A DNA stretch of 54,853 nucleotides from an uncultured Planctomycetales bacterium (GTDB lineage Bacteria > Planctomycetota > Phycisphaerae > UBA1845 > PWPN01), in NCBI GenBank assembly GCA_964617025.1, contig CAZTVU010000002.1:1-54853 (forward strand), read 5' to 3'. This document shows positions 3,286 through 35,491 of this stretch, one piece after another. The position numbers were made by a program, and so were the translations under genes. Each line of letters opens with the position of its first letter. Positions within the stretch are counted from its first letter, which is position 1. The notes below the pieces were generated by a model. It did no database searches and was not told the origin of the DNA. It worked only from the letters and a program-made list of their open reading frames with translations.

Positions 3286-3452
3286 GGGGAGACATGGAAG
3301 GGGTTCGGTGAATTCTTCCGGATAATCCAGGGAGGTGGGTGCAGGGAGAGCGTCGACGTGCCGGCGGAGCGGTGCCACATGCCAGATGTGGCTTCATAAT
3401 GTTTAGGGCGAAGAGGTTTGGTGCAAGTCCCTTTTTGATGAAGGAGCGAAGC

Positions 3453-4109: not shown

Positions 4110-4213
4110 TGCGGGCGTAGCGGAACGCTGCAAGTGAGGAAACGGAAACTGGCAGAGCAGGGACGCGCGGCGTGCCTGCCCTGCCAATCCTTTGCGCGGA
4201 TGAGGAGGATCGC

Positions 4214-10797: not shown

Positions 10798-11021
10798 TCG
10801 AAGCGTTGAAGAGCGACGAAATCATCAACAAGGTGGGGGGGCGGTTCAAGCTGACGGCGCTGATGCAGAAGCGCTATTTGGAGCTGATGCAGGGCGCGCG
10901 GCCGATGGTCGAGCCCGAGGGGAAGACTACGCTGGAGATCATTGCTCAGGAGATCCTCGAGGACAAGATCGGGATCGACTACGAGCACAGCGATATCGAC
11001 CCGAATATCGGAAAGCCCTAG
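10794..11021 (+). CDS. rpoZ: DNA-directed RNA polymerase subunit omega
   Basis: 75-aa protein (NKVGGRFKLTALMQKRYLELMQG). Shows the conserved gmk-rpoZ order. The ATG at 10794 overlaps the gmk TGA. Confidence 0.85.
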   Translation: MIEALKSDEIINKVGGRFKLTALMQKRYLELMQGARPMVEPEGKTTLEIIAQEILEDKIGIDYEHSDIDPNIGKP

Positions 11022-11034
11022 AGGCGGCCGCGCC

Positions 11035-11655: not shown

Positions 11656-11671
11656 CGAAGAGGCCGCCGCC

Positions 11672-12316
11672 GTGCGCATTCTCATCACCGCCGGGCCGAC
11701 TCGCGAGTACTTTGATACCGTCCGGTTCGTCTCGAATCCTTCGAGCGGCAAGATGGGGTATGCGCTGGCGGAGGCGGCGGTGGCGCGAGGGCATGAGGTG
11801 ATCCTCATCTCCGGGCCGGTTTCCATTGGGCCGCCGCGCGGTGTTCGCTGCATACCGGTTGTGACGGCGTCGGAGATGGCGGCCGCCGCGCGTCGGGCCT
11901 TCGACGGGGCGGACGCCGCCATCATGACGGCCGCCGTATGCGACTATCGACCGCGCCGCCGCCTGACGCACAAGCACAAAAAGGGGGCGCGTCCCCTGCG
12001 GATCACGCTTGTGCCCACGGAGGATATCGCGGCTTCGCTCGGCCGGCGCAAGGGACGCCGCGTGATGATCGCCTTTGCCATGGAGGACCATGATCATCGG
12101 CCGCACGCCGAGGCCAAGCTGGTACGCAAACGCTGCGATGCCATCGTCCTCAACGGTCCCGAGAACATCGGTGCGGACCGTGCCACCGTCGAGGTGCTCG
12201 TGGCGGGCGAGGGCTGGAGCGGCCCGTGGCGGGGCACGAAGACTCAGGTGGCCCGGCGGATTCTGCGTCTCCTGGAACGTCTTGTGTGCCGGAAGGCTCC
12301 CGTAGCGAGCCGGTAG
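11672..12316 (+). CDS. coaB: Phosphopantothenate-cysteine ligase (DFP/CoaB half of CoaBC)
   Basis: The GTG at 11672 gives VRILITAGPTREYFDTVRFVSNPSSGKMGYALAEAA. AAGAGG lies about 9 nt upstream. It is in a different frame from coaC (see finding). Confidence 0.85.
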   Translation: MRILITAGPTREYFDTVRFVSNPSSGKMGYALAEAAVARGHEVILISGPVSIGPPRGVRCIPVVTASEMAAAARRAFDGADAAIMTAAVCDYRPRRRLTHKHKKGARPLRITLVPTEDIAASLGRRKGRRVMIAFAMEDHDHRPHAEAKLVRKRCDAIVLNGPENIGADRATVEVLVAGEGWSGPWRGTKTQVARRILRLLERLVCRKAPVASR

Positions 12317-12373
12317 GCGTTTTCGGCCCGAACCCTGTGATTTCGCTTTGCGACCCCGTCGGAGTGCCGACCC

Positions 12374-13066
12374 ATGACCACAGACCCATGGTCGGACGCG
12401 GCGAGCAGCGCGGATGATCGTCGCCGGATGGTTCTCGAGCAGCTCCGCGCCCGGGGGCTGAAGGACGAGCGGGTCCTGGCCGTCATGGAGCAGATCCCCC
12501 GTGAGCGCTTCGTCGGCCCGGAGGCGGCCGCCGCGGCCTATGAGGATCGCGCCCTGTCCATTGCAGGGGGTCAGACGATTTCGCAGCCCTACATGGTCGC
12601 GGCCATGACCGAATACCTGCGGGTCGCGCCGACGCACCGCGTCCTGGAGGTCGGCACGGGCTCCGGCTACCAGACGGCCGTCCTGGCCCGACTTGCATCG
12701 AAGGTCTACACGATCGAGCGGCTCGCGGACCTGTCGCGTTCGGCCCGCGCGAGGCTCGAGGCCTTGGCGATCACGAATGTTGAGTATCGCGTGGGGGATG
12801 GCACGCTCGGCTGGCCGGAGGCCGCGCCGTTCGACCGAATCATCGTGACCGCCGGCGCGCCTCGCATTCCCGCCCCGCTCGTGGATCAGCTCGTGGATCG
12901 GGGACGGCTCGTCGTGCCGGTCGGCGCATCGGACCTCCAGAGTCTGATCGTGGTCGAGCGGGTCGGCGGGCGAACGATCGAGCGTGCGGTCATGGGTTGC
13001 CGCTTCGTGCCGCTGATCGGCGAACAGGGATGGGCGGCCGGGAGCGTGCCCGACGCAGAGGCGTGA
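12374..13066 (+). CDS. pcm: Protein-L-isoaspartate O-methyltransferase
   Basis: GQTISQPYMVAAMTE and the SAM motif VLEVGTGSGYQTAVLA, plus RIIVTAGAP. The exact start is uncertain. Confidence 0.9.
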   Translation: MTTDPWSDAASSADDRRRMVLEQLRARGLKDERVLAVMEQIPRERFVGPEAAAAAYEDRALSIAGGQTISQPYMVAAMTEYLRVAPTHRVLEVGTGSGYQTAVLARLASKVYTIERLADLSRSARARLEALAITNVEYRVGDGTLGWPEAAPFDRIIVTAGAPRIPAPLVDQLVDRGRLVVPVGASDLQSLIVVERVGGRTIERAVMGCRFVPLIGEQGWAAGSVPDAEA

Positions 13067-13069
13067 GCG

Positions 13070-13085
13070 CGCGAGGGCCCTCGCG
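13070..13085. terminator. Perfect 16-bp GC palindrome between convergent pcm and czcA (possible bidirectional hairpin, no U-tract)
   Basis: CGCGAGGGCCCTCGCG equals its own reverse complement. It sits in the 29-nt convergent gap. Confidence 0.3.
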
Positions 13086-13095
13086 GGCCACGGCC

Positions 13096-16000
13096 TCACG
13101 CCGCCGGCGACGGGAGGGGCTGCGATTCTTCGCCCGGGCGATTCGGCGCGAACCAGCCGTAGATCACGGGCAGCACGATCAGCGTCAGTAGCGTGCTGCT
13201 GATGATGCCGCCGATGACGACCGTCGCGAGCGGGCGCTGCACTTCCGCGCCGGTTCGCGTCGCCAGGGCCATCGGGACGAATCCGAACGCGGCCACGAGC
13301 GCCGTCATCAGGACCGGCCGCAAGCGGGTGAGGCTTCCCTCAAGGATCGCCTCGCGGAGCGGCCGGCCCTGGCGCCGCAGGCCGTCGATGAACGTGACCA
13401 TTACCAGGCCGTTCAACACGGCGACGCCGGAGAGGGCGATGAAGCCCACACCGGCGGCGATCGAGAACGGCATTCCCCGGAGCCAGAGCGACAGGACGCC
13501 GCCCGTCAGCGCCAGCGGCACGCCCGTGAACACCAGCAGGGCCAGCTGAACCGATCGGAGCGAGGCGATCAGCAGGAGAAGGATCAACCCCAGCGCCAGC
13601 GGCACGGCCACGGCGAGGCGTCGGCGTGCGGCGATCAGATGCTCGAACTGCCCGCCCCAACCGAGCCAGTAGCCTTCCGGCAGGCGGCCGAGCCGCCGCT
13701 CGACCCGCGCCTGTGCGTCGGCGACGAAACCGCCGAGGTCGCGTCCCCGCACGTTGCACTGCACGACGACGCGCCGCTTGCCGTCCTCGCGCCGGATCTG
13801 CCGGGCGTCCTCAACGACCTCCACCTTCGCCACGGCCGTCAACGGGACATAGCCGACGCGCGCGGGGCCCGGCTCGCCCGTGTAGTGGCGAGCTTCCTCC
13901 CGTCCCTCGCCGAGGCGAGGCAACGGGACCGGCAGGTTCCGAATCGCGTCCAGGTTTGCCCGCAAGGTCTCCGGCATGCGGACGACGAGCTCGAAGCGAC
14001 GGTCCCCCTCCAGCACGTGCCCGGCCGAGGCCCCGGCGAGGGCGATTTCGACCACATCCTGCACGTCGCGGACGTTCAGGCCGTAGCGGGCCGCTGCGGA
14101 CCGGTCGACGTCGATCGTCAGCATCGGCATGCCGGCCACCTGTTCCGTGCGAATGTCCGCCGCGCCGGGAATATCGGCCAGCGTCGCCGCAACGTCGCCG
14201 GCGTAGCGAAGCATGGTCTCCAGATCGTCGCCGTAGATCTTCACCGCCACATCGCTTCGCACGCCCGAGACCAGCTCATTCATGCGCAGCTCGATCGGCT
14301 GGCTGAACTCGTAGTTCTGCCCCGGCAACTGCCGGACCGCTTGCTCCATGGCGGCCACGAGCTCCTGCTGCGTCCGCGCCCGCCGCCACTGCTCGCGCGG
14401 TTTGAGGGTGATGTAGGTGTCGGACACCTCGGGACCGCAGACGTCGGTGACGACCTCCGACGTGCCGGTCCGGGCAAAGATGCATTCAATCTCGTCGGGA
14501 AACTCGCGGAGCAGCAGTTGCTCCACCTTCATTTGCATGTCTGCGCTGGCGCTCAGCGAAATGCTGGGCATGCGTGCGGGCTGCAGGGCGATCGCCTCTT
14601 CGTCGAGCCGGGGGATGAACTCGCTGCCCAGGCGCGTCGCCAGCAGGCCGGCGACGGCGAGAACAGCCGCGGCGCCGACGACGACCGCCGCCCGAAAACG
14701 CAGGACGGCATGCAGGATCCTCGCGTAGGCCGTCTTGGCCCATCGGATCAGGAAGACCTCACGCTCGGCGATTCGACGGGTCATCAGGAGGGCGATCAGG
14801 GCCGGCATGACCGTGAACGTCAGGACCATGGATCCGGCCAGCGCCAGCAGCAGGACCTGCGCCATCGGCCGGAACATCTTTCCCTCCACGCCGCCGAGCG
14901 CCAGGACCGGCAGGAATACGATGGCCGTGATCATCTCGCCGAAGAGCGCCGGCCGGCGCACCTCGGCGGCCGCGTCGCGAATCAGATCGAACCTTTCCGT
15001 GCGTGTCAGGATTCGCCCCAGCTCGCGCTGCCGACGCGCGAGGCGCCGGACGACGTTCTCGACCATCACCACGGTGCCGTCGACGATCAGGCCGAAATCG
15101 ATCGCGCCGAGGCTCATGAGGTTTCCGCTGATGCGGTTCTCGACCATCCCGACGATGGCGAACAGCATCGAAAGCGGAATGGCCATTGCGACGATGATTG
15201 CCGCGCGGACGTTGCCGAGCAGCAGAAAGAGTACCCCGATGACCAGCAGCGCGCCCTCCAGCAGGTTGTTTCGCACCGTGTTCAGGACGGCGTCGACCAG
15301 GCGCGTCCGGTCGTAGAGGGTGGTAATGCGCACGTTCTCGGGCAGGCTCTTGCGGGCCTGCTCGATCCGGGCATCGACGCGTTGAGATACGGTCCGGCTG
15401 TTCTCGCCGTAGAGAAGGATGGCCGTGCCGACGACGGCTTCGCGGCCGTTGGCCGTGCCGACCCCCGTGCGAAGCTCGTGGCCCACGGCGACGTCGGCGA
15501 CGTCGCCGAGGTGGAACGGCACGCCGTCGTGCGTCCCAAGCCGGATGTTTCGGATATCTTCGAGGTCCCGTATGCGGCCGGTCGAGCGGATGGTGTACTG
15601 CTCGCCGCGGTGCTCGATGTAGCCGCCGCCGACGTCGGCGTTGTTCGCGGCCACGGCCTCGAGCACGTCGCGAAAGCCGATGCCGTACGCGACGAGCTTC
15701 ATGGGGTCGGGCTTGACGTGATACTGCTTCACGTGACCGCCGATCGTGTTGATCTCCGTGACGCCCGGCACGCCGCGAAGCTGCGGCTTGATGACCCACT
15801 CCTGGAGGGTTCGCAGATCCATCGGGGAGTACGGCGTGCCGTCGGGCTTGGGGCCGACGGCGTCGACGCTCCAGAAGTAGATCTCGCCGAGACCCGTCCA
15901 GATCGGCCCCAGAAGCGGCGTGGCGGCGCCGGCGGGGAGACCCTCGCGGGCCTCGGCCAGCCGTTCCGCGACCAGTTGCCGCGCCCGGTAGATGTCCGTG

Positions 16001-23812: not shown

Positions 23813-23950
23813 GGGCGTCTCCGGGAAAGGCCTGTCCTCGTTTCACGACCATGATACCCGATGGCGTTGCCTCGACCAGCCGGGGGCGCGCAACGTGGCA
23901 ACTCGGGGCGGTGCCCGATAGACTGGCGGTGCTTCTTGCGGAGGAATTCG

Positions 23951-25141
23951 ATGACATCACGCGAACGGACGCAGCGCGCCATGAACCTCGATGTTCCGGA
24001 CCGCGTGCCGGTAATGTGTCAACTTGCGCTGGGGCACTACTTTCTGCACGCGGGTCTGAGCCCGTTTGAGATCTGGTTCACCAGCGAGGGCTTCGCGGAG
24101 GCCCTCGTTCGCCTGCAGCGGCGATATCGGTTTGACGGCATCCTCATCAACCTCCCCGGCCGGCCGCCGGACATCGAGCGATACGTTCAGCGCATCGATC
24201 GCGGCGAGAGCGAAGACGTCGTGCGATGGACCAACGGCGGTTTCGCGCGACTTCCGCATGATGACAACGCCCACTATGTCACGCCCTCCGGCGAGCCGCC
24301 GTTTCCGCAGTTCTCCGCAGTCGACCCTGACAGGCTTTATTATGTCGAGGCGTGGGATGCGACCGGGATCAAATACCCCCACGTGTGGGATTTCGAGCCG
24401 GCGCCTCGGCCGCCCGAGGACTTCTTCCCGCCGTACCATCTCGATACCATCCGAGCCGTGCTTCGCCGCGTGCGCGGCGAGGTGAGCGTGCATTCCGAGA
24501 TCTTCTCGCCGTTCTCGCAGTTGCTCGAGCTGCTGGGCTACGAGGCGGGCCTTCTTGCGATGGTGGACGATCCGGCCAAGGTGCATGCGTGCCTCGAGCG
24601 ACTGACCGCCGGGGCGATCGATTTGGGCCGTCGCCAGGCCGACTGCGGCGTCGACGCCGTGCTCATCTCCTCGGCGTTCGCCGGCGGCGGGTTCATCGGC
24701 CGCGAGCACTACGCCGAGTTCGTGTTGCCCTACGAGCGCCGGGTCGTCGAGGGGATCCGGTCGCACCGCGCGGTGCCGGTGTACACGCACACGTGCGGGG
24801 CGATCGGCGACCGGCTCGACCTGATGCTGGAGACCGGCACAACCGGCATCGACACGCTGGATCCGCCGCCGCTGGGGACCGTGGAGCTGGACGAGGCGAA
24901 GCGGGTCCTCGCCGGGCGGGCGTTCATCAAAGGCAACATCGACTCCGTCAATACGCTGCTGAACGGCACGGATGAACGATTTCGCGCGGACGTCCGTTGG
25001 CGGCTGGAGGTCGGCAAGCCCGGTGGCGGATATGTGCTCAGCTCGGCGTGTTCGGTGGCACCGCGGGTCGCACCGGAGCGTTTGATGCTCCTGGTTGAGA
25101 TGGCGGAGGCATATGGGAAAACTTGGGAATCAGGCGTGTGA
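23951..25141 (+). CDS. Uroporphyrinogen decarboxylase (URO-D) family protein (MtaA/CmuA-like, non-HemE)
   Basis: ATG at 23951 after GGAGGA. 396 aa with MTSRERTQRAMNLDVPDRVPVMCQ... and a C-terminal ...GGGYVLSSACSV pattern typical of URO-D-fold proteins. The family call is from memory. Confidence 0.65.
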   Translation: MTSRERTQRAMNLDVPDRVPVMCQLALGHYFLHAGLSPFEIWFTSEGFAEALVRLQRRYRFDGILINLPGRPPDIERYVQRIDRGESEDVVRWTNGGFARLPHDDNAHYVTPSGEPPFPQFSAVDPDRLYYVEAWDATGIKYPHVWDFEPAPRPPEDFFPPYHLDTIRAVLRRVRGEVSVHSEIFSPFSQLLELLGYEAGLLAMVDDPAKVHACLERLTAGAIDLGRRQADCGVDAVLISSAFAGGGFIGREHYAEFVLPYERRVVEGIRSHRAVPVYTHTCGAIGDRLDLMLETGTTGIDTLDPPPLGTVELDEAKRVLAGRAFIKGNIDSVNTLLNGTDERFRADVRWRLEVGKPGGGYVLSSACSVAPRVAPERLMLLVEMAEAYGKTWESGV

Positions 25142-25297
25142 AAGGAACGAGGTGGCGCGAACCGGGTATCGTTTCCCGGGGCGGCTCGGGTCTTTTCGCC
25201 ATGGGGAGCTGTGCTTGCGTCCGGTGGTGCTGTTACGGCGCGAGCTCGGGAAAGCATCTGGGTCCGTGCCCGAACGTCATTGCCGAATATGTCGAAC

Positions 25298-25326
25298 TTG
25301 ACGACGGACCTCAGACGGCGTATGCT
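25298..25326 (+). promoter_or_regulatory. Promoter candidate for tRNA-Glu: TTGACG-17 nt-TATGCT
   Basis: -35 at 25298-25303 and -10 at 25321-25326. The tRNA 5' end lies 22 nt downstream. Confidence 0.45.
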
Positions 25327-25348
25327 CCTGAAAACTTCCGGCTAGGTC

Positions 25349-25421
25349 GCCCCCATCGTCTAGTGGCCTAGGATATCAGGTTCTCATCCTGGAGACAGGG
25401 GTTCGAATCCCCTTGGGGGTA
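25349..25421 (+). tRNA. tRNA-Glu (anticodon CTC)
   Basis: Manual fold: acceptor GCCCCCA/TGGGGGT (G1-U72 wobble), D-arm GTCTAGTGGCCTAGGAT, anticodon stem CAGG(T)/CCTG with loop TTCTCAT (CTC at 25383-25385). T-arm AGGGGTTCGAATCCCCT, discriminator A. CCA is not encoded. Confidence 0.9.
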
Positions 25422-25599
25422 TCCGAAATATCGGAAATAGCCGGTAAACGTTTGTAAGTGCTTGTAATAGCGGGCTTTGCTTCGGCGTCTGTAAGTCCGC
25501 ATTTCCTGTGAATTCCTGCGTGTGCCGGCACATATCGGGCTGAACTCCACGCCGCCTTGCTTGCGAAGCCCTGAGAGTACGTGGACGCGCGGTTTTCGC

Positions 25600-25628
25600 T
25601 TGACACACGCGGTTACGCCTCGTAAAAA
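25600..25628 (+). promoter_or_regulatory. Sigma70-like promoter candidate: TTGACA-17 nt-TAAAAA
   Basis: -35 at 25600-25605 and -10 at 25623-25628, about 210 nt upstream of the 25836 start. Confidence 0.35.
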
Positions 25629-25835
25629 GAGCATGTTGACGGGAGATTGGGGCTGGGACATCGTCGTGCGTCCCGAGCGCCTCGGCAACATTCTGACGGA
25701 CGCCATCGATCGGCGTGGACGCGGAGGCGTTTCACATCAGGAGGCGTTGTGTGAGTGGGAAGAGCAGCCCAGCGGGCGCGCGCCCTTGGGTCGTGAGGAA
25801 TGCCGCCAGCGCCTTGGTGCGCGGGGAGAATGCCG

Positions 25836-27893
25836 ATGAGAAGGTCACAACGAATGCTCCTGGTGCCGGTCGTTTGCGCGGTTGCCGCGACAGCAGTCGT
25901 GGGCGCCGTTGTTTTCGACGGGATGATCGACTTCGACCCGGGCGGAGAGTGGGAGGGCCGTTTCGGGGCGTTGCAGGACAATTACACCCAGTTCGGCAAC
26001 CAGATCCTGGGTGGCTACTCCGGCTCCGAGATCGATGAGCTTTATGTGCAAACCGACGGCACGTTTCTTTACGTCGGCGTCACGGGAAACCTGGAGGAGA
26101 ACGGCAACAGCCAGATTATCCTTTTGGACGTCAGGCCCGGCGGGCAGCAGATACTCGCGACGGAGATCGCACCAATCGTGGCCGAACTGCCCTGTTCCGG
26201 CAATGGACCGCCCTACGCCGTGCAGAACCTCGGACAGGCACTCACCAACGACGCCGGTACACCGCCGCAGACCATTCGCGACGCCGCGACGACCGGTACG
26301 ATCCTGGATCCGGGCTTCGAACCGGACTACGCCATTGCGGTGGACACCTTCGGGCATGTCGTTCACGTGACGCAATACGATCTCTACGCGGTGTCGCAGG
26401 GCACATGGGACGACCCGGGTACCAATGATGGCACGCCCTGCGGACCGCCCAACGAAGCCCTCGCTTACTTCGCCACGCGGACCTATCGCGGCCAGACGGA
26501 CGTTGACAGCGGGACCGGCGTGCTGGTCAACGGCAATAACCCCAACGGATCGGAGTTCGCCTACAACAACACGGGATACAACGGAGTCACGGGCAACACG
26601 GTAGCGGCGCCTGGTTCCAGCCTGCCGGGCGACCCCCGAACACAAACCACCGGCCTTGAGGCGAAGATCGCGCTGGCGGACCTCGGCATTGCCGTGCCGC
26701 TGACGGGGGAGTTGACGATCCGAATTGCCGTCGTACTCACATCGGGCGGCGGGAGGGTCAGCAGCCAGACCTTGCCGGGAATCGGCGGCCCGAACCCGCC
26801 GGCCGACATCGGCCTACGACCGGACTTCGCGGCGATCCCCGGCAACCAGTTCGCCAGCGTGACGCGGGTCCCGACGCTCGATGCTCCGGTGATCGACGGG
26901 CTGAACATCCCGGCGGAATTCGGCGTGAGCGATCTCGTCGCCAGTCAGGACACACCGACCAGCTTTGGCGACCATCCGCAGAATCCGGACCTCAACACGG
27001 CGGGGTCGGAGCTCGACCAGTTGTTCGCCGGGAGCGATCGCAGCCTGGAGATCGCGATTACCGGCAATCTCGAACCCAACGGCAATAACCTGGTCATCTT
27101 CCTCGACACGTTGCCGGAGCAGGGCGAGGGCCTGACGAACGCGCTGGATGCCAACGCGGGGCGAATCAGCGGCCTGGCCACGGACAAGATCCCGCTCGAC
27201 GCCGACTACGCCTTAGTCATCAACAACTGGCAGGGGACCATCTATGTCGATCTAATAGATCTTATCAACAACACGTCGACGTACATCGGGGCGAACGGCA
27301 CCAATACCGGCGAAGGCATCCTGGAAAACGGCGGACCGGTCGTTGGGTGGGAGGTCGCCCTGAACAACACGAACGTGGTGGGCGTCGACGACGACGGGTT
27401 CAACGACCCAATCATTCAGCAGGCCAACGCGGCAACGGCCACGACGGGATTCGAGATCAAGATCCCGCTTTCGGCCATCGGTGCGCCCGCGGATGCATCG
27501 ACCGTCTGCCTCTTCGCCGTGATCACGGGGGGCGGGTATCTGTCCAACCAGTTTCTGCCTGCGGGGGTCGGCGGCGGCTGGTCCAACTTCGGCAATCCGC
27601 CGGTCGACCTGACCGCCTACGGCTACTCGTGTCTGCCGGTCGTCATCCACAACCCGCCGCCCTGCAACGCGCCGCCTCAGGACACGGACGGCGACGGCGA
27701 CGTCGACCTGGGCGACTTCGGCCAGTTCTCGGCGTGTTTCAACGGACCGAACCGCGCCTGGTCCGGGCCGCCTGCGGACCAGAATGTCTGCCGTTGCGTG
27801 GACGCCGACGGCGACCTGGATGTGGATCTTACTGATTTCAGCACGTTCAGCGGGTGTTTCAACGGGCCGAACCGGCCGCCGGTCTGCGGCTGA
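25836..27893 (+). CDS. Large secreted protein with an internally duplicated beta-sandwich/CBM-like domain and a C-terminal Cys-containing tandem dockerin-like module
   Basis: Signal or anchor MRRSQRMLLVPVVCAVAATAVVGAVV. Duplicated motifs are SEIDELYVQ..VGVTGNLEENGNSQIILLDV versus SELDQLFAG..IAITGNLEPNGNNLVIFLDT, and TGLEAKIALADLG versus TGFEIKIPLSAIG. The C-terminus is DTDGDGDVDLGDFGQFSACFNGPNR...DADGDLDVDLTDFSTFSGCFNGPNRPPVCG. ATG 25830 is an alternative start. Confidence 0.8.
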   Translation: MRRSQRMLLVPVVCAVAATAVVGAVVFDGMIDFDPGGEWEGRFGALQDNYTQFGNQILGGYSGSEIDELYVQTDGTFLYVGVTGNLEENGNSQIILLDVRPGGQQILATEIAPIVAELPCSGNGPPYAVQNLGQALTNDAGTPPQTIRDAATTGTILDPGFEPDYAIAVDTFGHVVHVTQYDLYAVSQGTWDDPGTNDGTPCGPPNEALAYFATRTYRGQTDVDSGTGVLVNGNNPNGSEFAYNNTGYNGVTGNTVAAPGSSLPGDPRTQTTGLEAKIALADLGIAVPLTGELTIRIAVVLTSGGGRVSSQTLPGIGGPNPPADIGLRPDFAAIPGNQFASVTRVPTLDAPVIDGLNIPAEFGVSDLVASQDTPTSFGDHPQNPDLNTAGSELDQLFAGSDRSLEIAITGNLEPNGNNLVIFLDTLPEQGEGLTNALDANAGRISGLATDKIPLDADYALVINNWQGTIYVDLIDLINNTSTYIGANGTNTGEGILENGGPVVGWEVALNNTNVVGVDDDGFNDPIIQQANAATATTGFEIKIPLSAIGAPADASTVCLFAVITGGGYLSNQFLPAGVGGGWSNFGNPPVDLTAYGYSCLPVVIHNPPPCNAPPQDTDGDGDVDLGDFGQFSACFNGPNRAWSGPPADQNVCRCVDADGDLDVDLTDFSTFSGCFNGPNRPPVCG
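27681..27890 (+). repeat. Coding tandem dockerin-like repeat module (copy set 2 of 3)
   Basis: Two D-x-D-x-D-x-D-V-D-L-x-D-F-x-x-F-x-x-C-F-N-G-P-N-R units with four conserved Cys. Confidence 0.85.
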
Positions 27894-28008
27894 CCAGCGG
27901 GCCCGGCCGCGGGATTATTGAGCGAAGCGAATCGGGTGGATCCGATTCGAAAAACCCGAAACGTAGCCCGGCTGAAGCCGTGGCGCTATTGCATCAGGAG
28001 GTCACGAA

Positions 28009-28680
28009 ATGCGAGCGATCATATTGACAGCCCTGTTTGCGACATTCGCCGCGCCCGTCTGGGGTGCGTACTACGTGGCGGGGGATTTCAACGGCTGGAA
28101 CGCCGCGGGAAACATCATGACGGACATGGGGGGCGGCGTGTGGCAGGTGGATCTGAGCAATGTCGGCGGGCGGCACGAGTTCAAGGTCACGATCGGTGAC
28201 TGGTCGCAGAGCTGGCCCGGCAGCGGAAACAGTTGGTTCTTCGGCGACGGCGCCGGCAACGTCACTCTGACGTTCAACGCCAACGACATACAGGACGGCT
28301 GGCGAGGCAACTGGGGCCGTATGGGCACCAGCACCGACCCCGGTACCTGGACCGCCGTGGGGGATTGGCAGGGCTGGAACAACGCCGGCAACGCCATGGT
28401 CGCGCAGGGCGGGGGCATCTATCGGTACGAACAGGTCTTGGCGCCCGGTTGGTACCAGTGGAAGGCGGTCGTCACCGGATCGTGGGATGCGATCGGGGAC
28501 GACTTCCGCAGCGTCAACGCAAACACCACCTGGTTCGAGGTGACCGCGGCGAATCCGATCGCGGTGTTTGAGGTGAACGCCCTGGCCGGCATCGAACGGG
28601 TCTACACGATCCCCGAGCCCGCGACACTGGGGCTGGTTGCCGTGGGCGTTTTGGGCATGGTTCGGCGCCGGGGGCGCTAA
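28009..28680 (+). CDS. PEP-CTERM-anchored protein with two starch/glycan-binding-type modules (CBM20/25/48-like pattern)
   Basis: AGGAGG lies before the ATG at 28009, with signal MRAIILTALFATFAAPVWGA. Module 1 is YYVAGDFNGWNAAGNIMTDMGGGVWQVDL...HEFKVTIGDWSQSWPG. Module 2 is WTAVGDWQGWNNAGNAMVAQGGGIYRYEQVLAPGWYQWKAVVTGSWDAIG. C-terminal IPEPATLGLVAVGVLGMVRRRGR is a PEP-CTERM. Confidence 0.8.
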   Translation: MRAIILTALFATFAAPVWGAYYVAGDFNGWNAAGNIMTDMGGGVWQVDLSNVGGRHEFKVTIGDWSQSWPGSGNSWFFGDGAGNVTLTFNANDIQDGWRGNWGRMGTSTDPGTWTAVGDWQGWNNAGNAMVAQGGGIYRYEQVLAPGWYQWKAVVTGSWDAIGDDFRSVNANTTWFEVTAANPIAVFEVNALAGIERVYTIPEPATLGLVAVGVLGMVRRRGR

Positions 28681-28718
28681 TTCGCTGCACCGCCCGTCGA
28701 CCGGCAGGCGAGCACGAA

Positions 28719-31430
28719 GTGCTCATCCGCCGGTCGATACAACGGGGATGGGCAGAGCCCCCTGGGGGCGATCCAAACCGTGCGGGGGAACCCTGCTTGC
28801 CCGCGAAGAGGTCCCCAGGTCGGTCGACGGTCTTATGCCTTGCGGCAGCCGTAGTGGTCTCCGCGCCGGCCGGCGCACAGACAACCGTCGTCACGCTCCA
28901 ATGGTTCGAGACCTCATGGCGAACCATGGAAGACCGGACGGCGGACGCGTTCATGGCCGGATACGGGCGAGTCTGGACTCCGCCGCCGAGCAAGGGAGAA
29001 AACGGGACCGCATCCATCGGGTACAACGTCTTCGACCGATTTGACCTCGGCAGCCCGACTGCACGCACTCGATACGGGACTCGGGACGAGCTTCAGGCGG
29101 TCGTCGCGGAGCAGGACAAGGCCGGGATCTCCACCTTCATCGACCTGGTTCTGAATCACAACTCGACGAGTGACGCCGGCACCCCGGGCTTCGCGGCGGC
29201 GGGCGGTTATCCCGGCTTCGTGCTGAGCTGGGGCGTTGATTCTTTCGGGGACTTCCACGACCCTGGGGAGACGGACGTCATCCGGATGCGGCTTGCCGGC
29301 CTCATCGATGTCGCCCAAGAAAAGAACTATACCTTCTACCGGCACCCGATCACCCCGGGCGATCCCCACAACATCCCGGCCGGCACCGTCCGCAACCGGC
29401 CCGATCCGAACAACCGGCAGTATTACCCCGATGCACAACTGCCGGCCAACAGCATCGGGATTCATCCGTTCAACCCCGCCGATCCGCTCGCCGGCGACCC
29501 CTACCTGGAGAACGCCACCGGACTGCTCCTGCGGCACGTGCAGTGGATGCTCGAGGTCATCGGGGTGGACGGCTTTCGCATCGACGCCGCCAAGCACATG
29601 CCCGACTGGTTCTTGCGGGACTTCTACGACCGCCAGGTCTGGCAACGCGGTCCGCGGGATCTGAGTGGGAACGCCACCACGCCCTTCAGCTTCATGGAGA
29701 TCTTCGACGGCAGCCTCGGCTGGCATTCCGGCTACGTCTGCAAGGGGGGCAACGGCAACTGCAACACCTCCGGGGGCGTGCAAGGCAATCGCGATACGCT
29801 CGACTTTCCGCTTTACTTCGCGATGGCGAGTAACCTCGGCGGCAACGGGCTGGGGTCCTGGGAAAACATCATCCACGCGAGCGTGGATGCGATTCTCGAC
29901 GGCGACGCGAATGACGGCGACTTCGGCGTGCAGTTCGTGCAGAGCCACGACCAGTACGCCCCCGGCGACGACAACCTTGCCTACGCATACATCCTCACCC
30001 GGACGGGCTCGCCGATCGTCTATTTCCAGGCGGGGGAGTTCGGCTCCGTGAGCTTCCCCAAGCCGGGGCGAGGCGACGCCCTGGGCGGTCCGTACGGCGA
30101 TCTGCTTACGCGGCTCGTGGACATCCACAACGAGTACGCCCGCTGGGGCTGGTGGGCGCGGCGCGATCCGGGCAACTCGAGCTTCGACGACGTCCTGGTT
30201 TTCGAGCGGTACAACAGTCTGCTCGTCGGTATCAACGACCGTCACGACGGCGGCTACGATCAGCGCACCGTGCAGACCGCATTCGCGGCGGGGCAGCGGC
30301 TTCGCGAACTGACCGGGAACGCGGCCGACCCGCTTGTCGACCCGAACGACGACCTCGGCGACGTCGTCACCGTCGGATCCGGCGGGTGGGTCACTCTTCG
30401 CATCCCGCGAAACCGAAACGCGCAAGGCGTGGCGCACAACCGCGGCTACGTGATGTACGGCCCCGCGAACCCGGATGGCGACCTCGTTGTCACACCCGTT
30501 GCGTCAACGATTCCCGCAGACCCGGAAGGCACGCCGAACGCCACGCGGCGACTGACCGAGATGAAGGTCATCACGGCCGACTCGTTCGAGGTCCGCCTGG
30601 AAACCGTCGATGCCGATCCGCTCGACCCCGACGAGGACGACCTTGCACTGCTCAAGATGGATGCGGGCATGGACCTCAACGGGAACGGAGCCATTGATTT
30701 CGTCGACCCGGGCTTCGTCGGGTACGGGTTCGAGGACTTCCTGACGCAGGCCGTATCGCTCGAGAGCGGCGGCGTCAACATCAGCGGGACGCCAAAGGGC
30801 CTGTACCGCCAGACGATTGACGCCACGAAGCTGTCCGAAGGGCGCCACTACCTGACGGTCATTGCCTTCCGCCGCCGCCCCGCCGGCACCCCGCCCGTCT
30901 TTGAGACCTGGCGGCAGGTGCTCTACGTCGATCGGCAGCCGGCGGCCGTCGCGAAGACGGCGCCGGGCAGCGGTGAGACCATCATCGCAACAACCTACAA
31001 GTTCAGCGTCCGGTCGACCGACGGTACGGTCAGCGCCGCGAGCTTTTTCCTCGATATGCCGCCGGGGACGGACCTCGTGTCACTCGCCCGCAGCGGACAG
31101 GGCGCGGCCGCGCAGGATGATCGCTATCTATTTGGCAGGAGCTTCACCGGCCTGATCAGCGGAAACCATCGCCTGGATGTGGTCGTTTTCGAGGAGTCCG
31201 GGCGAGCCGCCGTGTGCTCGTTCCCCGGCATCCGCGTCGTGATCGCCGGCCGGAGCGGGCTTGGTGACTTCAACGGCGACGGCCTGGTCAACAACTTCGA
31301 CATCAAGGGCTTCGCCGCCGTGCTGAATGCCAACGGTTTCGATCCGCGCGCGGATCTCAACGGCGACGGCATCGTGGATGCGACCGACCGTGCGCAGTTT
31401 GTCGCGATGCTGACGGGAGGTGGGGGATGA
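28719..31430 (+). CDS. Secreted GH13 alpha-amylase-family enzyme with a long C-terminal extension and a canonical tandem dockerin
   Basis: GH13 regions DLVLNHNS, GFRIDAAKHMP, FMEIFDG and FVQSHDQ. Signal LCLAAAVVVSAPAGAQ. The C-terminus is GDFNGDGLVNNFDIKGFAAVL...DLNGDGIVDATDRAQFVAML. The probable true start is TTG 28797 (a GGGGGAA SD-like element lies upstream); 28719 is the ORF-track GTG. Confidence 0.88.
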   Translation: MLIRRSIQRGWAEPPGGDPNRAGEPCLPAKRSPGRSTVLCLAAAVVVSAPAGAQTTVVTLQWFETSWRTMEDRTADAFMAGYGRVWTPPPSKGENGTASIGYNVFDRFDLGSPTARTRYGTRDELQAVVAEQDKAGISTFIDLVLNHNSTSDAGTPGFAAAGGYPGFVLSWGVDSFGDFHDPGETDVIRMRLAGLIDVAQEKNYTFYRHPITPGDPHNIPAGTVRNRPDPNNRQYYPDAQLPANSIGIHPFNPADPLAGDPYLENATGLLLRHVQWMLEVIGVDGFRIDAAKHMPDWFLRDFYDRQVWQRGPRDLSGNATTPFSFMEIFDGSLGWHSGYVCKGGNGNCNTSGGVQGNRDTLDFPLYFAMASNLGGNGLGSWENIIHASVDAILDGDANDGDFGVQFVQSHDQYAPGDDNLAYAYILTRTGSPIVYFQAGEFGSVSFPKPGRGDALGGPYGDLLTRLVDIHNEYARWGWWARRDPGNSSFDDVLVFERYNSLLVGINDRHDGGYDQRTVQTAFAAGQRLRELTGNAADPLVDPNDDLGDVVTVGSGGWVTLRIPRNRNAQGVAHNRGYVMYGPANPDGDLVVTPVASTIPADPEGTPNATRRLTEMKVITADSFEVRLETVDADPLDPDEDDLALLKMDAGMDLNGNGAIDFVDPGFVGYGFEDFLTQAVSLESGGVNISGTPKGLYRQTIDATKLSEGRHYLTVIAFRRRPAGTPPVFETWRQVLYVDRQPAAVAKTAPGSGETIIATTYKFSVRSTDGTVSAASFFLDMPPGTDLVSLARSGQGAAAQDDRYLFGRSFTGLISGNHRLDVVVFEESGRAAVCSFPGIRVVIAGRSGLGDFNGDGLVNNFDIKGFAAVLNANGFDPRADLNGDGIVDATDRAQFVAMLTGGGG
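31266..31427 (+). repeat. Canonical (Cys-free) type-I-like dockerin duplicated F-hand at the amylase C-terminus
   Basis: DFNGDGLVNNFD...DLNGDGIVDATD are two 12-residue Ca-loop motifs, each followed by a helix. Confidence 0.75.
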
Positions 31431-32281
31431 CGCGGTCACTTCCGCTTCGCGTTTCGCGGTTTGCACGGCTGGTTCATGTCGTGGCCGTCGCGATGTTTGC
31501 CGGCACGGGTACGGCGACCGCACAGAACTGTATCTGGCTGAATCAGAACCCGGATGACGGCGGACTGTTCGCGACGAAGAACCCTGCGCCGGGCGTCGTC
31601 GTCGGGCATTCGACCGAGCTGTATATCTGGATCAGCAAGAACACGGCGATCGCCGGCTACGACGGAATCAGCCTGGACGTCCACGTGGAGAGCCCGGACG
31701 GCGGTCAAGTGGACACGGAAATCGCCGTCGACAACGAAGGCGCCCGCTGGGACGCGGTGTACGGCGGCACTCCGCTGCCGGGCACCGGCGGGACCGGCAT
31801 CGACAACGCCAACGCCATCGACCTGACAAACACCGACACCACCGGGACCGATCCGTTCCGGTTCGCTCGGCTCACGTTCACCGGCCGGCAGGTCGGGACG
31901 GTCCGCGTCTTCCTCGGGATCGGCGACAAGGGCGTTGCGGACAACGGGACGGTCCCTTCGTTTTACATCGGTATGATCGCAGAGGGCACTACGCCGGAGT
32001 CGCCCGCCGTGTCCGGTGGCAACTACGGCGCGACGTCGAGCATTCCTGAGGCCGTCATCACCGTGTTGTCGGGCCCGGTAGGGGACTACGATGACGATTC
32101 GGATGTGGACCTGGCGGACTTCGCCGTCTTCGGCTCGTGTTTCAACGGCCCCAACCGCCTGCCGGCGCAGCCCGGGTGCGCAGGCGTGGACGCGGACGGC
32201 GACAGCGACGTGGACCTCACAGACTTCGCGCAGTTCCAAGCCTGTTTCAACGGTCCGAACCGCAAGCCGGCGTGCGGCTGA
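31427..32281 (+). CDS. Secreted protein with a cohesin-like N-terminal beta-sandwich (hypothesis) and a C-terminal Cys-containing tandem dockerin-like module
   Basis: The ATG at 31427 overlaps the amylase TGA (ATGA). Signal RFARLVHVVAVAMFAGTGTATAQ. The body (ELYIWISKNTAIAGYDGISLDVHVES...DPFRFARLTFTGRQVGTVRVFLGIGDKGVADNG) resembles cohesin strand patterning. The C-terminus is DYDDDSDVDLADFAVFGSCFNGPNR...DADGDSDVDLTDFAQFQACFNGPNRKPACG. Confidence 0.8.
   Translation: MTRSLPLRVSRFARLVHVVAVAMFAGTGTATAQNCIWLNQNPDDGGLFATKNPAPGVVVGHSTELYIWISKNTAIAGYDGISLDVHVESPDGGQVDTEIAVDNEGARWDAVYGGTPLPGTGGTGIDNANAIDLTNTDTTGTDPFRFARLTFTGRQVGTVRVFLGIGDKGVADNGTVPSFYIGMIAEGTTPESPAVSGGNYGATSSIPEAVITVLSGPVGDYDDDSDVDLADFAVFGSCFNGPNRLPAQPGCAGVDADGDSDVDLTDFAQFQACFNGPNRKPACG
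32081..32278 (+). repeat. Coding tandem dockerin-like repeat module (copy set 3 of 3)
   Basis: Same two-unit CFNGPN module as at 5045-5251 and 27681-27890. Confidence 0.85.
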
Positions 32282-32516
32282 CGGCACGCACGGCGATCCG
32301 CTCGGCATGGGCGGCGCTGTCCGGCGACGATAGGGGGTCCGTGTGCCGTGGACGACCGGCCGCTCCGGTTTCTTCCATTATCGTGAAAGGGCGAATCCGC
32401 CGGGGTGTGCCCTGCGAGGGGAGTGAAGGGGCAATACGAACGTTGAAGATGGGAGGGGCCTCGCACGGATGTCCTGGCGCAAACCGATGCGCGGGCGCCA
32501 AGACACGGCCACAAGA

Positions 32517-32552
32517 AAAGCACCGAGTGCGGTATTGATCACTCGGTGCTTT
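32517..32552. terminator. Bidirectional Rho-independent terminator between the convergent 31427 gene and nrdJ
   Basis: A perfect 11-bp stem AGCACCGAGTG/CACTCGGTGCT (32519-32529 / 32540-32550) with a 10-nt loop. It is flanked by AAAA 5' and TTT 3', so each strand reads hairpin plus U-tract. Confidence 0.7.
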
Positions 32553-32605
32553 CCGGAGGGGAAAGAAGCCGGTAGCGATCACGCCTCCGGTTATGAATCA
32601 GGCCT

Positions 32606-35284
32606 TCAGCAGGCGGCGTACCCGCAGTGAACGCAGGTGCGGCACCCTTCCGCAAGATGCAGGGTCTGGCCGCAATCGGGGCATTTCACCTTGAAGGCGT
32701 TTGCGCGCAAGGAAGCGTCCGCGTCCCCGGTCGGCACGGACGATCCGCTTTGGGAGATAGTAATGGCTGCCTTGGCGTGGCGCACTTCCAAGTGGCGGCC
32801 GTTTCCACCGCTGCGACTGCCCCCGTTTCCGTTGCCGTTCCTTCTCCCGGGGACAACGGACGATGAACAGGCATGGGTCGTGCCCGAGTACGGCGGGCGA
32901 TCGAGCTGTGACAGATCGACTTCACCCAACAGCAGGTCATGCAGGCCGAACAGCTCCTTGGCCCGCTGGTATTTCATCAGGGCCCTCGCCAGGCCGTCGC
33001 CGAGGCTCATGATCCGGCCGTCCTTGGTGGGCGTCTGGAGGCTGGATCCGATATCCTTAAGCTGCTGGATCACATGAACCAAGCGGCCGCCGGAGCGCAG
33101 CCAGAGCGAGATCAGGCGGCACATGGCCTCGAGATCGCTGCCGGCCACGTCGCCGCCCTTGCCGAGCTGGGCGAAGACCTCGAGTTCCCGCTCGCTCTTG
33201 GGATCGACGGTGATCTTCACGTGCATGTTGCCGAACGGCGTAAGCTGCCGAATGCGGAAGCCGCTGACGATCTCCGGCAGGTCCCGCGGTTCGAGCTCGG
33301 GGATGTCGGCCGCCGGGATGTCGGATGGTTCTTTGCGTTCCGCCTCGTGCTTCTTGTCGGAGTCGGCAAGCGCCATGGGTTGGCCGGCACGGCAGCCGTC
33401 CCGGTAGACGGTGATGCCTTTGCAGCGGAGTTCGTACGCCATCCGGTATATCGTGTCGACGTCGTCGACGGTGGCGTGGTTCGGAAAGTTGATCGTCTTC
33501 GAGATCGAGGCGTCGCAGTGCTTCTGGAATGCGGCCTGCATGCGAACGTGCCACTCCGGCGAGACATCGTGAGCGCACACGAAGACGCGCTTGACGTCCT
33601 CCGGAACTTCGTCAATAGCAGCGAGGGTGCCCTCCGTGGCAATCCGTTCCATGAGGCCCTCGCTGTAAAAACCTCTCGTCTTCGCCACATGTTCGAAGAC
33701 GTCATTGATCTCGACCATCGGGGTCTTGCCTTCGTCCTGCCCCTTGAGCACGTTGCGGAAGAACGCGAGGCTGAAAAGGGGTTCGATGCCGGCCGAGCAG
33801 TTGGCCAGGATGCTGATCGTCCCGGTGGGTGCTACGGTCGTCACGGCGGCGTTGCGCATCGGGCGGCGTTGCACCGTGTCCCAGGTGCTTCCCTTCCAGT
33901 TCGGGAAGCAGCCTCGCTCGATGGCAAGCTGCTCGCTGGCATCATGTGCCGTGTCGTTGACGAAGCGCATGAACCGCTCGGCCCATTCGAGGCCCTCGTC
34001 ATCACAGTAACGGACGTTCAGCTTGAACAGGGCATCGGCAAAGCCCATGACGCCCAGGCCGATCTTGCGGTTCGCATGGCAGACCTGCGAGATCTCGGGC
34101 AGCGGGTAGTTGTTGGCGTCGATGACGTTGTCCAGGAAGCGGACGCTGACTCGCACCGTGTTTCGCAGAGACTCCCAGTCGACTCTCGCGTTGTCCGAGC
34201 ACGGGTCCGTCACGAAACGGCCGAGATTGATGCTGCCCAGATTGCACGCCTCGTAGGGCAGCAACGGTTGCTCGCCGCACGGATTGGTGGCTTCGATACG
34301 CCCTACGTGGGGCGTCGGGTTGAACTCGTTGATCCGGTCGATGAAGACCACGCCGGGCTCGCCCGTCTGCCAGGCGTGACGGACGATGATCTCCCAGATG
34401 TCTCGCTTGGTGTACACCGCGACCGGTGACCCGTTCACCTCGACTCGGACCGCGCCATCCTGACGAGTCAGCGGCTGCGGGTCACTGGTCACGGGAATCA
34501 ATGACCGAATGTCGTACTTCTGGATGTCCACGTCGCGGGGGATGTAGAACTCCTGCTGGTTTCGCGGATTGCGCACCCGGTGGGGCGAATCGGGGTCGGT
34601 CCGGAACGACTCCATCCACTCGTCCGTGATCTTGACCGAGATGTTGTAGTTCGTGAACTGGGTGAGATCCTGCTTGGCGTAGAGGAACTTGAGGATGTCC
34701 GGGTGATGGACGTACATCATGCCCATATTCGCCCCGCGGCGGAACGCACCCTGCTGAATCGCGTTCGTCGCCTCGCTGAAGGCCCGCCAGAAGCTGATCG
34801 GCCCGCTGGTCGTGCCGCCGCTGCTGCGGATGTAGTCCCCGGTCGGGCGCAACTCGTCGAACGCGAACCCCGTGCCGCCGCCGGCCTTCTGAATGAGCGC
34901 CGTGTTCTTGATGGAGTCGAAGATGTCGTTGATGCTGTCCTTGACCGGCAGGACGAAACAGGCGCTAAGCATGCCCATCTCGCGCCCGGCGTTCATCAGC
35001 GTCGGGCTGTTGGGCATGAATCGCCCGCTGACCATCAGATCGTAGAACTCATCCTCCCAATACTGTCGGTGTTGCGCATCGGCCCCGTAGTTCGTTTCGA
35101 TGTTCGCGATGGTTGCGGCCACGCGCCGGAAGAGATCCTCGGGCTTCTCAGTGGGACGGCCCTGCTCGTCTTTCTTGAGGTAGCGGGCCCGGAGGACGCG
35201 CAGCGCATTGGGCGTCCAGGTGCCGAAGGCGCCTTCCTTGGCGGTTCGGGTTTCAGCACGTCGATCCGTGACGATGGCTGACAT
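32606..35284 (-). CDS. nrdJ: Class II (adenosylcobalamin-dependent) ribonucleotide reductase
   Basis: Motifs RFMPNSPTLMNAG, NPCGEQPLLPYEACNLGSINL and TVAPTGTISILANCSAGIEP. C-terminal Zn-ribbon CPDCGQTLHLAEGCRTCVHCGYAAC. The ATG at 35284 is 9 nt after AAGGAG; the track GTG at 35290 is too close to the SD. Confidence 0.92.
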   Translation of the reverse strand: MSAIVTDRRAETRTAKEGAFGTWTPNALRVLRARYLKKDEQGRPTEKPEDLFRRVAATIANIETNYGADAQHRQYWEDEFYDLMVSGRFMPNSPTLMNAGREMGMLSACFVLPVKDSINDIFDSIKNTALIQKAGGGTGFAFDELRPTGDYIRSSGGTTSGPISFWRAFSEATNAIQQGAFRRGANMGMMYVHHPDILKFLYAKQDLTQFTNYNISVKITDEWMESFRTDPDSPHRVRNPRNQQEFYIPRDVDIQKYDIRSLIPVTSDPQPLTRQDGAVRVEVNGSPVAVYTKRDIWEIIVRHAWQTGEPGVVFIDRINEFNPTPHVGRIEATNPCGEQPLLPYEACNLGSINLGRFVTDPCSDNARVDWESLRNTVRVSVRFLDNVIDANNYPLPEISQVCHANRKIGLGVMGFADALFKLNVRYCDDEGLEWAERFMRFVNDTAHDASEQLAIERGCFPNWKGSTWDTVQRRPMRNAAVTTVAPTGTISILANCSAGIEPLFSLAFFRNVLKGQDEGKTPMVEINDVFEHVAKTRGFYSEGLMERIATEGTLAAIDEVPEDVKRVFVCAHDVSPEWHVRMQAAFQKHCDASISKTINFPNHATVDDVDTIYRMAYELRCKGITVYRDGCRAGQPMALADSDKKHEAERKEPSDIPAADIPELEPRDLPEIVSGFRIRQLTPFGNMHVKITVDPKSERELEVFAQLGKGGDVAGSDLEAMCRLISLWLRSGGRLVHVIQQLKDIGSSLQTPTKDGRIMSLGDGLARALMKYQRAKELFGLHDLLLGEVDLSQLDRPPYSGTTHACSSSVVPGRRNGNGNGGSRSGGNGRHLEVRHAKAAITISQSGSSVPTGDADASLRANAFKVKCPDCGQTLHLAEGCRTCVHCGYAAC

Positions 35285-35491
35285 TGCCACTCACTCCTTT
35301 ACACAAATGGCGGCGGCGAATACGATCACACCGTTACGGGACGGTCGCCGGTAAATATTACACGTTTCGTCGTGAAGGCAGCGCGCACCGCAACCGTCCG
35401 AGGCCGACAGCCACCTCCACGCAAGCCCAAGCACCAAACCGCGGTGCGTTTCTATCGGACGGGCCTCTACAACATCTTGAGGGCAATCCTA

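Follow-up and report, generated by a model that had tools for sequence, protein, structure and literature searches.

The stretch of DNA analysed here (the window) covers 54,853 nucleotides (nt) of contig CAZTVU010000002.1 from an uncultured Planctomycetales bacterium of the Phycisphaerae. An open reading frame (ORF) at positions 31427-32281 of its forward strand encodes a secreted protein of 284 amino acids (aa), called here the target protein, and its start codon overlaps the stop codon of a gene for a predicted dockerin-bearing alpha-amylase. On balance, this protein is probably a translationally coupled, secreted and monovalent adaptor scaffoldin for the upstream amylase, which would bind the dockerin of the enzyme (class A, DocA) and display a dockerin of its own (class B, DocB). 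The observations behind this reading are the structure of the gene, the domain architecture of its product, the two dockerin classes, the cohesin-like predicted fold of the central domain and a strict linkage to the amylase that extends to fused and collapsed variants. From them we infer a contact between DocA and the cohesin-like domain, its dependence on Ca2+ and a receptor for DocB. To our knowledge, the cohesin-dockerin assembly of polysaccharide-degrading enzymes is well established in Gram-positive Firmicutes only. Planctomycetes have many orphan dockerins. The locus pins a candidate partner to one dockerin-bearing amylase. The features of the two genes are as follows.

31427-32281, + strand: target gene, encoding the 284-aa secreted protein with signal peptide, cohesin-like beta domain and class-B dockerin (ORF and orthologs)
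31416-31430, + strand: coupling junction, a GGAGG Shine-Dalgarno sequence in the last amylase codons followed by the ATGA start/stop overlap (direct reading of the sequence)
31427-31522, + strand: signal peptide, aa 1-32, with predicted cleavage between ATA and QN (sequence features and AlphaFold helix aa 11-26)
31523-32074, + strand: cohesin-like beta-sandwich domain, aa 33-216 (AlphaFold and Foldseek)
31781-31840, + strand: most conserved motif of the family, G-T-G-G-T-G-I-D-N-A-N-A-I-D-L-T-N-T-D-T, aa 119-138 (family alignment)
32075-32281, + strand: class-B dockerin (DocB), aa 217-284, and stop codon (Dockerin_1 in relatives, PDB dockerin matches and AlphaFold helices)
28719-31430, + strand: GH13 alpha-amylase, 903 aa as the longest ORF (Pfam, NCBIfam and PDB matches)
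31260-31427, + strand: class-A dockerin (DocA), amylase aa 848-903, GDFNGDGLVNNFDIKGF...DLNGDGIVDATDRAQFVAML (Pfam Dockerin_1)

Gene overlap, domain architecture and two dockerin classes

The ATG of the target gene (31427-31429) and the TGA that ends the ORF upstream of it (28719..31430; TGA at 31428-31430) share TG and so form ATGA, as the earlier note on this DNA had read it. A GGAGG at 31416-31420, 6 nt ahead of the ATG, lies inside the terminal Gly codons of the amylase. The layout of GGAGGTGG followed by ATGA or GTGA is conserved in the orthologous loci L001, L006 and L008, and L004 has GGAGGGCGGATCATGA. The 4-nt overlap (ATGA or GTGA) is found in L001, L004, L006, L008, L018, L019 and L028. 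It persists across these loci while their proteins are merely 51-64% identical, and is therefore not due to chance. In the more distant loci L009 and L010 the overlap is 8-11 nt. The GC content at third codon positions of the target gene is 0.84, similar to that of adjacent genes. A scan of positions 25100-32700 for promoters and terminators gave one promoter-like site, which equals the chance expectation, and no convincing terminator past 32281.

Nine full-length orthologs share 53-64% identity with the target, and two further proteins share 41% (P0047) and 34% (P0048). The beta domain is rare. Among 1.84 billion representatives its family accounts for only 3 clusters (50% identity), and it is found in 7 of the 185,579 species genomes of GTDB, all of them metagenome-assembled genomes (MAGs) of Planctomycetota; homologs likewise come from Phycisphaerae/Planctomycetota MAGs. 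Each locus has exactly one copy. No paralogs of the domain, which might have served as a DocB receptor, were found in the window or the retrieved loci. In all loci with upstream sequence, the target directly follows an ortholog of the DocA-bearing amylase and overlaps it. A metagenome scan made from the amylase side, with the family-specific C-terminal 345 aa as query, found the domain immediately downstream in 4/4 loci that extended far enough.

The AlphaFold model of the full-length protein (from a 10-sequence alignment; mean predicted local distance difference test, pLDDT, 74.8) has the helix of a signal peptide (aa 11-26), followed by an all-beta domain (aa 34-214) and then by two short helices (aa 229-238 and 264-273). 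This agrees with the suggestion of the earlier note that a signal peptide is followed by about 170 beta-patterned residues. The signal peptide has an n-region rich in R, LVHVVAVAMFAG as its hydrophobic core and an A-x-A site. In fused homologs, described below, the hydrophobic segment is lost and the domain begins precisely at the mature Q/S-x-F-W-L.

Residues 217-284, which had been overlooked, form a dockerin-like duplicated module. It consists of two near-identical repeats, D-x-D-x-D-x-D-V-D-L-x-D-F-x-x-F-x-x-C-F-N-G-P-N-R, with four conserved Cys that may form two disulfide-locked loops. Pfam Dockerin_1 gives 16 bits on the window module, under the cutoff of 22.9, and matches 11/11 full-length family members (best E 1.6e-6). 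Furthermore, the family profile matches dockerins among PDB sequences at E 4e-4 to 3e-3, including 8x39 (E 4e-4) and 2vn5_B of C. cellulolyticum (E 1.6e-3), and the two helices are predicted at pLDDT 84-94. Thus the C-terminus of the target shows tandem segments of ~22 residues, each with an EF-hand-like Ca2+ loop and a helix, as well as the Dockerin_1 match, as expected of a dockerin. The proposal that the target is a cohesin-like scaffold stands as far as it describes a conserved overlapping partner of a dockerin-bearing amylase, with a predicted fold nearest to solved cohesins. A plain scaffold, however, does not agree with its own C-terminal dockerin of a second type.

A search of 5.8 billion proteins with the target gave, beyond the nine orthologs, matches confined to DocB. 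The matching proteins have unrelated N-terminal domains (Ig, BACON, SUMF1, kelch and subtilisin), and those with a source name come from Phycisphaerae. DocB therefore looks, at the level of sequence, like a lineage-wide C-terminal tag. Three proteins with ~40% query coverage (P0012, P0014 and P0045) were rejected as sharers of the beta domain; their similarity lies in DocB and the remainder is BLAST over-extension. DocB has no NCBIfam model and mostly scores under the Pfam Dockerin_1 cutoff. It ends three window proteins (32075-32281, 27681-27893 and ~5045-5254, the last at the end of ORF 4172-5254) and is also present in loci L001, L004, L006-L008, L026 and L028, with FG-GAP and GH15 types among the carriers.

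Database matches identify the product of the upstream ORF as a GH13 alpha-amylase of divergent sequence (NCBIfam PRK09441, E 5e-39; PDB amylases, E ~1e-17; Pfam Alpha-amylase, E 3e-7, and Alpha-amy_C_pro). That it bears a dockerin, as previously suggested, was confirmed by Dockerin_1 (PF00404), which scores 25.7 bits at aa 848-893 against the cutoff of 22.9. Hidden Markov models (HMMs) of the two dockerins were scanned against 23 sequences (267 kb in total). The DocA HMM matches the amylase alone in each of them. The DocB HMM matches the target, the 697-aa first protein of the operon, the downstream GH15-like enzyme of relatives and others. There is no cross-matching either way, which defines two dockerin classes. 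The distribution of DocA is taken from these local HMM scans. A search of the 5.8 billion proteins with the 74-aa DocA alone gave 4 candidates and 1 match, and with so short a query it is uninformative on this point.

The start of the amylase is ambiguous (28719-28925). The GTG at 28719 gives 903 aa and lies ~35 residues ahead of a hydrophobic signal sequence. The database gene call (P0050) is an 834-aa amylase that starts from MEDRTADAF, which would remove the signal peptide, and orthologs such as that of L010 start shortly ahead of a TLQWFE motif. An additional EF-hand-like loop, DLNGNGAIDFVD, is present in the non-catalytic C-terminal region of the amylase (~30672-30710, aa ~652-664), and its residues D-x-N-G-N-G-x-x-D-x-x-D are invariant in seven orthologs.

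Predicted fold of the beta domain and its arrangements in relatives

The domain-only AlphaFold model, made with 12 sequences, is all beta (pLDDT 79, predicted template modelling score 0.81). Foldseek against the PDB, a check that the earlier note had suggested, gave cohesins in all of the top 11 places, among them 2vn5_A, 6kgf_A, 1g1k_A, 5nrm_A and 4uyq_A, at E 8e-5 to 9e-4 and probability 1.00. The template modelling (TM) scores were 0.50-0.63 on the length of the matched cohesin and 0.35-0.51 on the query. With the full-length model, cohesins were most of the top 13 (E 3e-6 to 9e-5, TM up to 0.61 on the length of the matched structure). These were mainly scaffoldin and adaptor cohesins, namely 3kcp_A, 4fl4, 5lxv_A (ScaC), the 6kg* CaCohA2 entries and 4ums. 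Adaptor and scaffoldin cohesins solved together with their dockerins are among the matches. Lower ranks held GH123 N-domains, pilins and DUF4466. Neither CBM3 nor any other carbohydrate-binding module (CBM) was among the top 50 PDB matches of either model. These matches suggest that the beta domain likely has a cohesin fold.

The motif at aa 119-138, which also served as the search pattern for finding loci, has the invariant residues G121, G122, G124, I125, N129, L133, T134, T136 and D137, and is a putative binding or Ca2+ site. Four aromatic residues of the domain, W37, W68, W108 and Y78, are invariant as well.

Relatives show the amylase and the domain in three arrangements: as split genes that overlap (the form of the window), as a fusion and as a collapsed form. 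In the fusion (P0057, P0064, P0066, L014, L020 and L021), amylase, DocA, linker, cohesin-like domain and DocB are encoded in one ORF. In L014, L020, L021, P0064 and P0066 the linker has 18 aa, the hydrophobic signal peptide is removed and the domain continues from its predicted mature N-terminus. P0057 has a different linker and a possible remnant of the signal peptide and is just 64% identical; it may have arisen independently, or it could be an artefact of assembly. In the collapsed form the amylase has DocB precisely at the usual site of DocA (P0072 in L026, with the same X25 operon, and P0074 in L027). Both collapsed amylases belong to the in-group, being 57-64% identical to the window enzyme, and the cohesin-like gene is absent from both loci, L027 and the larger L026 (18.7 kb). 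In a neighbour-joining tree (without bootstrap) the in-group is monophyletic. Fused forms occupy two places in it and collapsed forms another two, all of them nested among the split forms.

Whether split, fused or collapsed, each arrangement has the same output, an amylase equipped with DocB. Furthermore, DocA and the cohesin-like module co-occur, are fused and vanish together in relatives. A constant DocB output and a joint gain or loss of DocA and the cohesin-like module are what an adaptor predicts. In the fused proteins L020 and L021, DocA scores 61-72 bits with the DocA HMM, compared with 82-83 bits in the unfused clade-2 loci L009 and L013, whose dockerins were also outside the seed alignment of the HMM. 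The DocA of these fused proteins (~aa 843-897 of the ORF in L020) has an atypical first Ca2+ loop, DMNNDNRTNNRD. The weaker DocA in fusions may reflect a relaxed constraint following fusion.

A candidate adaptor and its alternatives

The adaptor would work as follows. Both proteins would be made from one mRNA, and probably in similar amounts, because the adaptor start overlaps the amylase stop on that mRNA. After Sec export, the N-terminal cohesin-like beta-sandwich of the adaptor would bind the C-terminal DocA of the amylase. The DocB of the adaptor could then deliver the pair to whatever receptor or surface recognises this class. By such 'type switching', a DocA-bearing amylase would end up displaying DocB. 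Together with the DocB proteins of the operon and its putative X25/PEP-CTERM starch binder, the pair might enter an amylosome-like assembly on a diderm cell. The parts found agree with an adaptor scaffoldin: a signal peptide, one predicted cohesin-like module and one dockerin, whose HMM does not cross-match that of the amylase dockerin. The window also contains parts of the amylosome type, a dockerin-bearing GH13 amylase and an X25 protein, with a candidate cohesin partner at the level of predicted fold.

Several results weigh against this reading, and the first concern the fold. In 12 family members, Pfam Cohesin (PF00963) had zero matches at E<=10. An hhalign comparison of the family with three cohesins of C. 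thermocellum gave 1% probability, and a profile search of PDB sequences returned no cohesin at E<=10. Likewise, Pfam and NCBIfam scans of the window protein did not detect a cohesin, and no cohesin sequence profile recognises the beta domain. The sole stretch aligned by hhalign pairs GIGDKGVADNG with the cohesin segment GIPSKGIANCD, at non-equivalent positions of the domains. Since all searches for cohesins at the sequence level were negative, the motif resemblance on which the earlier note had relied is not evidence. Cohesin families invisible to sequence methods have been recovered with AlphaFold, with TM-align > 0.65 as a working criterion and CBM3 as a look-alike negative control (PMC13463774). 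The scores of 0.50-0.63 obtained here, which are Foldseek and not TM-align values, lie under that criterion, and because they fall just short of 0.65 the cohesin fold is rated no higher than likely. In addition, the domain is ~45 residues longer than canonical cohesins (~185 aa vs ~140), and its most conserved loop is modelled at low confidence (pLDDT 44-57 over aa 111-140, which takes in the first half of the conserved motif).

The other adverse results concern DocA. The amylase has 1,377 homologs at E<=1e-20. Across Planctomycetota nearly all of them bear a DocA-like module in the same place, and the module is ancestral in this family. The amylases of sister clades (~835 aa; L023-L025) have this module and no cohesin-like neighbour, and DocA is therefore older than the target and works, or worked, independently of it. 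Fused proteins still keep DocA, although a tether is no longer needed. By analogy, this would fit an intermolecular chaining as in Amy4 of Ruminococcus bromii, and it would fit another partner of DocA equally well. Finally, the joint loss in collapsed forms could result from one deletion, or from one recombination between the Ca2+ loops, which are homologous in DocA and DocB. Because DocA and the domain are adjacent in a fused ancestor, such a single event is possible and selection on a binding pair is unnecessary.

In the amylase homologs, the DocA-like module lies at aa ~815-895 (P0086, P0088, P0092, P0104, P0119, P0128, P0142 and others). It may end the protein or be followed by a PEP-CTERM anchor, by FG-GAP/VCBS repeats, by PKD domains or by a second dockerin, and from these architectures the part behind the dockerin looks like an anchor that can be exchanged. 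Homologs from Sumerlaeota lack a dockerin and carry lamin-tail domains.

The alternative that survives best, although we consider it unlikely, is that the beta domain binds glycans or starch without a catalytic role, like SusE/F or the Sas proteins of R. bromii, and is displayed by DocB and linked to the amylase through a common substrate. The gene does belong to a starch-utilisation operon with X25/PEP-CTERM and other binding-type proteins, and the domain has the invariant aromatic residues listed above. Cohesins and CBMs are both beta-sandwiches, hence the use of CBM3 as a look-alike control (PMC13463774), and the TM-scores are borderline. The DocA-like modules of sister clades with no target partner and the persistence of DocA in fused forms also agree with this view. 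However, cohesins fill the top ranks in two independent models, with CBMs missing from the top 50 structural matches and no CBM family match in Pfam, and collapsed variants have lost the domain together with DocA and yet remain in the same starch operon, which would be strange for a domain that provides the binding of substrate.

It is considerably less probable that the partner of the cohesin-like domain is a class-B dockerin, that of the target itself or of another operon protein, and that this drives homo- or hetero-oligomerisation, while DocA binds a different receptor. The Amy4 cohesin of R. bromii binds the dockerin of Amy4 itself (PMC4611034), the DocB repeats are nearly identical, as in dockerins with a dual binding mode, and DocA is older than the domain in the amylase family. 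However, DocB is found on many unrelated secreted proteins, whereas the domain occurs once per genome and only beside the amylase; a single-copy, monovalent domain of a starch operon is therefore unlikely to be a general receptor of DocB. The collapsed amylase-DocB forms, which have no such domain, also speak against it. That the target is an amylase-specific accessory factor, for example a helper of secretion or folding or an inhibitor, with a cohesin-like fold that is the coincidence of a generic beta-sandwich, is very improbable: the strict 1:1 linkage and translational coupling are typical of enzyme-chaperone and enzyme-inhibitor pairs as well and sequence homology to cohesins was not found, but the target carries the DocB display module common to other extracellular proteins of the operon, a fusion C-terminal to the amylase is tolerated and the structural matches are specifically cohesins.

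For the adaptor, the fused and collapsed variants back the link between the target and the amylase. The locus offers a concrete pair of small modules, and the split, fused and collapsed versions that occur in nature allow a direct test of the pairing. A wider proposal is put forward tentatively, with somewhat less confidence than the adaptor itself: some Planctomycetota (MAGs of Phycisphaerae type) may have a two-tier dockerin system on a diderm surface, in which a hitherto unrecognised cohesin family, an orphan by sequence, binds the classical dockerin of the amylase and converts it to the lineage-wide Cys-rich CFNGPNR display tag. If so, the CFNGPNR dockerin would be a general surface-display tag for dozens of secreted enzymes.

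Known systems and the surrounding genes

Among the closest known systems is ScaC of Ruminococcus flavefaciens, a monovalent adaptor (PMC11557425), which has a signal peptide, one cohesin module and one C-terminal dockerin, as the target does with its cohesin-like module. The proposed switching of dockerin type between the enzyme and the remaining complex is also shared. The ScaC cohesin 5lxv_A is the third-ranked match of the full-length model, and both models also match a cohesin whose listed name is 'third cohesin ScaC' (4uyq_A, 4uyp). Unlike ScaC, the target has no detectable cohesin sequence homology, a domain of ~185 instead of ~140 aa and a Cys-rich dockerin variant. Its host is a diderm planctomycete and not a Gram-positive Firmicute, and its gene overlaps, and seems dedicated to, one enzyme gene.

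The amylosome of R. bromii (Amy4/Sca1, Sca2-4; PMC4611034) also has a dockerin-bearing GH13 amylase and X25 starch-binding modules. Amy4/Sca1 is a GH13 amylase with cohesin and dockerin (GH13-Coh-Doc), compared with GH13-DocA-Coh-like-DocB in the fused planctomycete relatives, and the scaffoldin Sca3 carries the X25 modules. The two systems differ in phylum and cell envelope, with PEP-CTERM/exosortase here and sortase there. In R. bromii, sequence is enough to recognise the cohesins and experiments have shown that they bind, while the cohesin-like module of the target is known from its predicted fold; here, moreover, there is one cohesin-like module per amylase and there are two dockerin classes. 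The only planctomycete precedent is the 'planctosome', proposed for freshwater Nemodlikiaceae from genomes alone (PMC6461901). It is likewise a proposed, genome-based extracellular complex of cohesins and dockerins, with an adaptor that has both modules. The planctosome model has Pfam-detectable cohesins, peptidases and an LTD-anchored protein of 2,210 aa, whereas the system of the window is amylolytic and operon-encoded, with a cohesin-like family that is new by sequence.

Our literature search found no paper that describes an amylase-linked cohesin system in Phycisphaerae. Dockerin-like modules were reportedly described by Peer et al. in 2009 as frequent outside cellulosome producers, in bacteria and archaea, and often with no evident cohesin partner. 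In contrast to those non-cellulosomal modules, a candidate partner is here tied genetically to one dockerin-bearing enzyme. The target is not assignable to a cohesin family by sequence and, judging from the models, would behave as a variant, at the level of structure, of the cohesin-dockerin adaptor theme, in a phylum and an envelope type that are new to it. If the pairing is real, it would represent a new cohesin family invisible to sequence methods and an amylosome-like system in a diderm phylum, the first outside Firmicutes; the abundant Cys-rich dockerin of Phycisphaerae would be a general display tag whose receptor could then be searched for. New orthogonal cohesin-dockerin pairs also serve designer enzyme complexes.

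The window has 66% GC and is chromosomal, with housekeeping genes for TIM, LeuRS, EF-G and a class II ribonucleotide reductase. Two genes precede the amylase gene in the operon:

25800-27893, + strand: 697-aa secreted protein with an internal duplication and a terminal DocB (~27681-27890) (DocB HMM, 78.9 bits)
28009-28680, + strand: putative surface protein of 223 aa that would bind starch, with X25 module and PEP-CTERM sorting signal (Pfam)

The conserved operon order is a large DocB-ending protein, an X25/PEP-CTERM protein, the amylase, the target and a GH15-like enzyme with a terminal DocB. The 697-aa protein heads the operon; its duplication pairs GSEIDELYV...GNLEENGN with GSELDQLFA...GNLEPNGN, and outside the DocB tail no Pfam, NCBIfam or PDB sequence match was found. 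Its orthologs have 644-1050 aa and hold the same position in all related operons. The 223-aa protein, matched by Pfam X25_BaPul_like (E 1.2e-8) and PEP-CTERM (E 6.6e-6), also keeps its position in orthologous loci. The GH15-like gene is missing after the target in the window, where a convergent class II ribonucleotide reductase gene (32606-35290, minus strand) comes next. In most related operons (compared in L001 at 10964-14209, L007, L008 and L011), this putative glucoamylase of ~1030-1085 aa ends in DocB and follows the target. Relatives also have a divergent GH13 pullulanase-like gene and a LacI regulator, neither of which lies directly upstream in the window; the upstream neighbour here is a URO-D-like gene (23861-25141).

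A second pair of genes lies apart from the operon. It consists of a PEP-CTERM protein (3339-4109, + strand, 256 aa) immediately followed by a DocB-ending protein (4172-5254, + strand, 360 aa) that has no Pfam match. This pair echoes the starch operon, and proteins anchored by PEP-CTERM may cooperate with DocB proteins.

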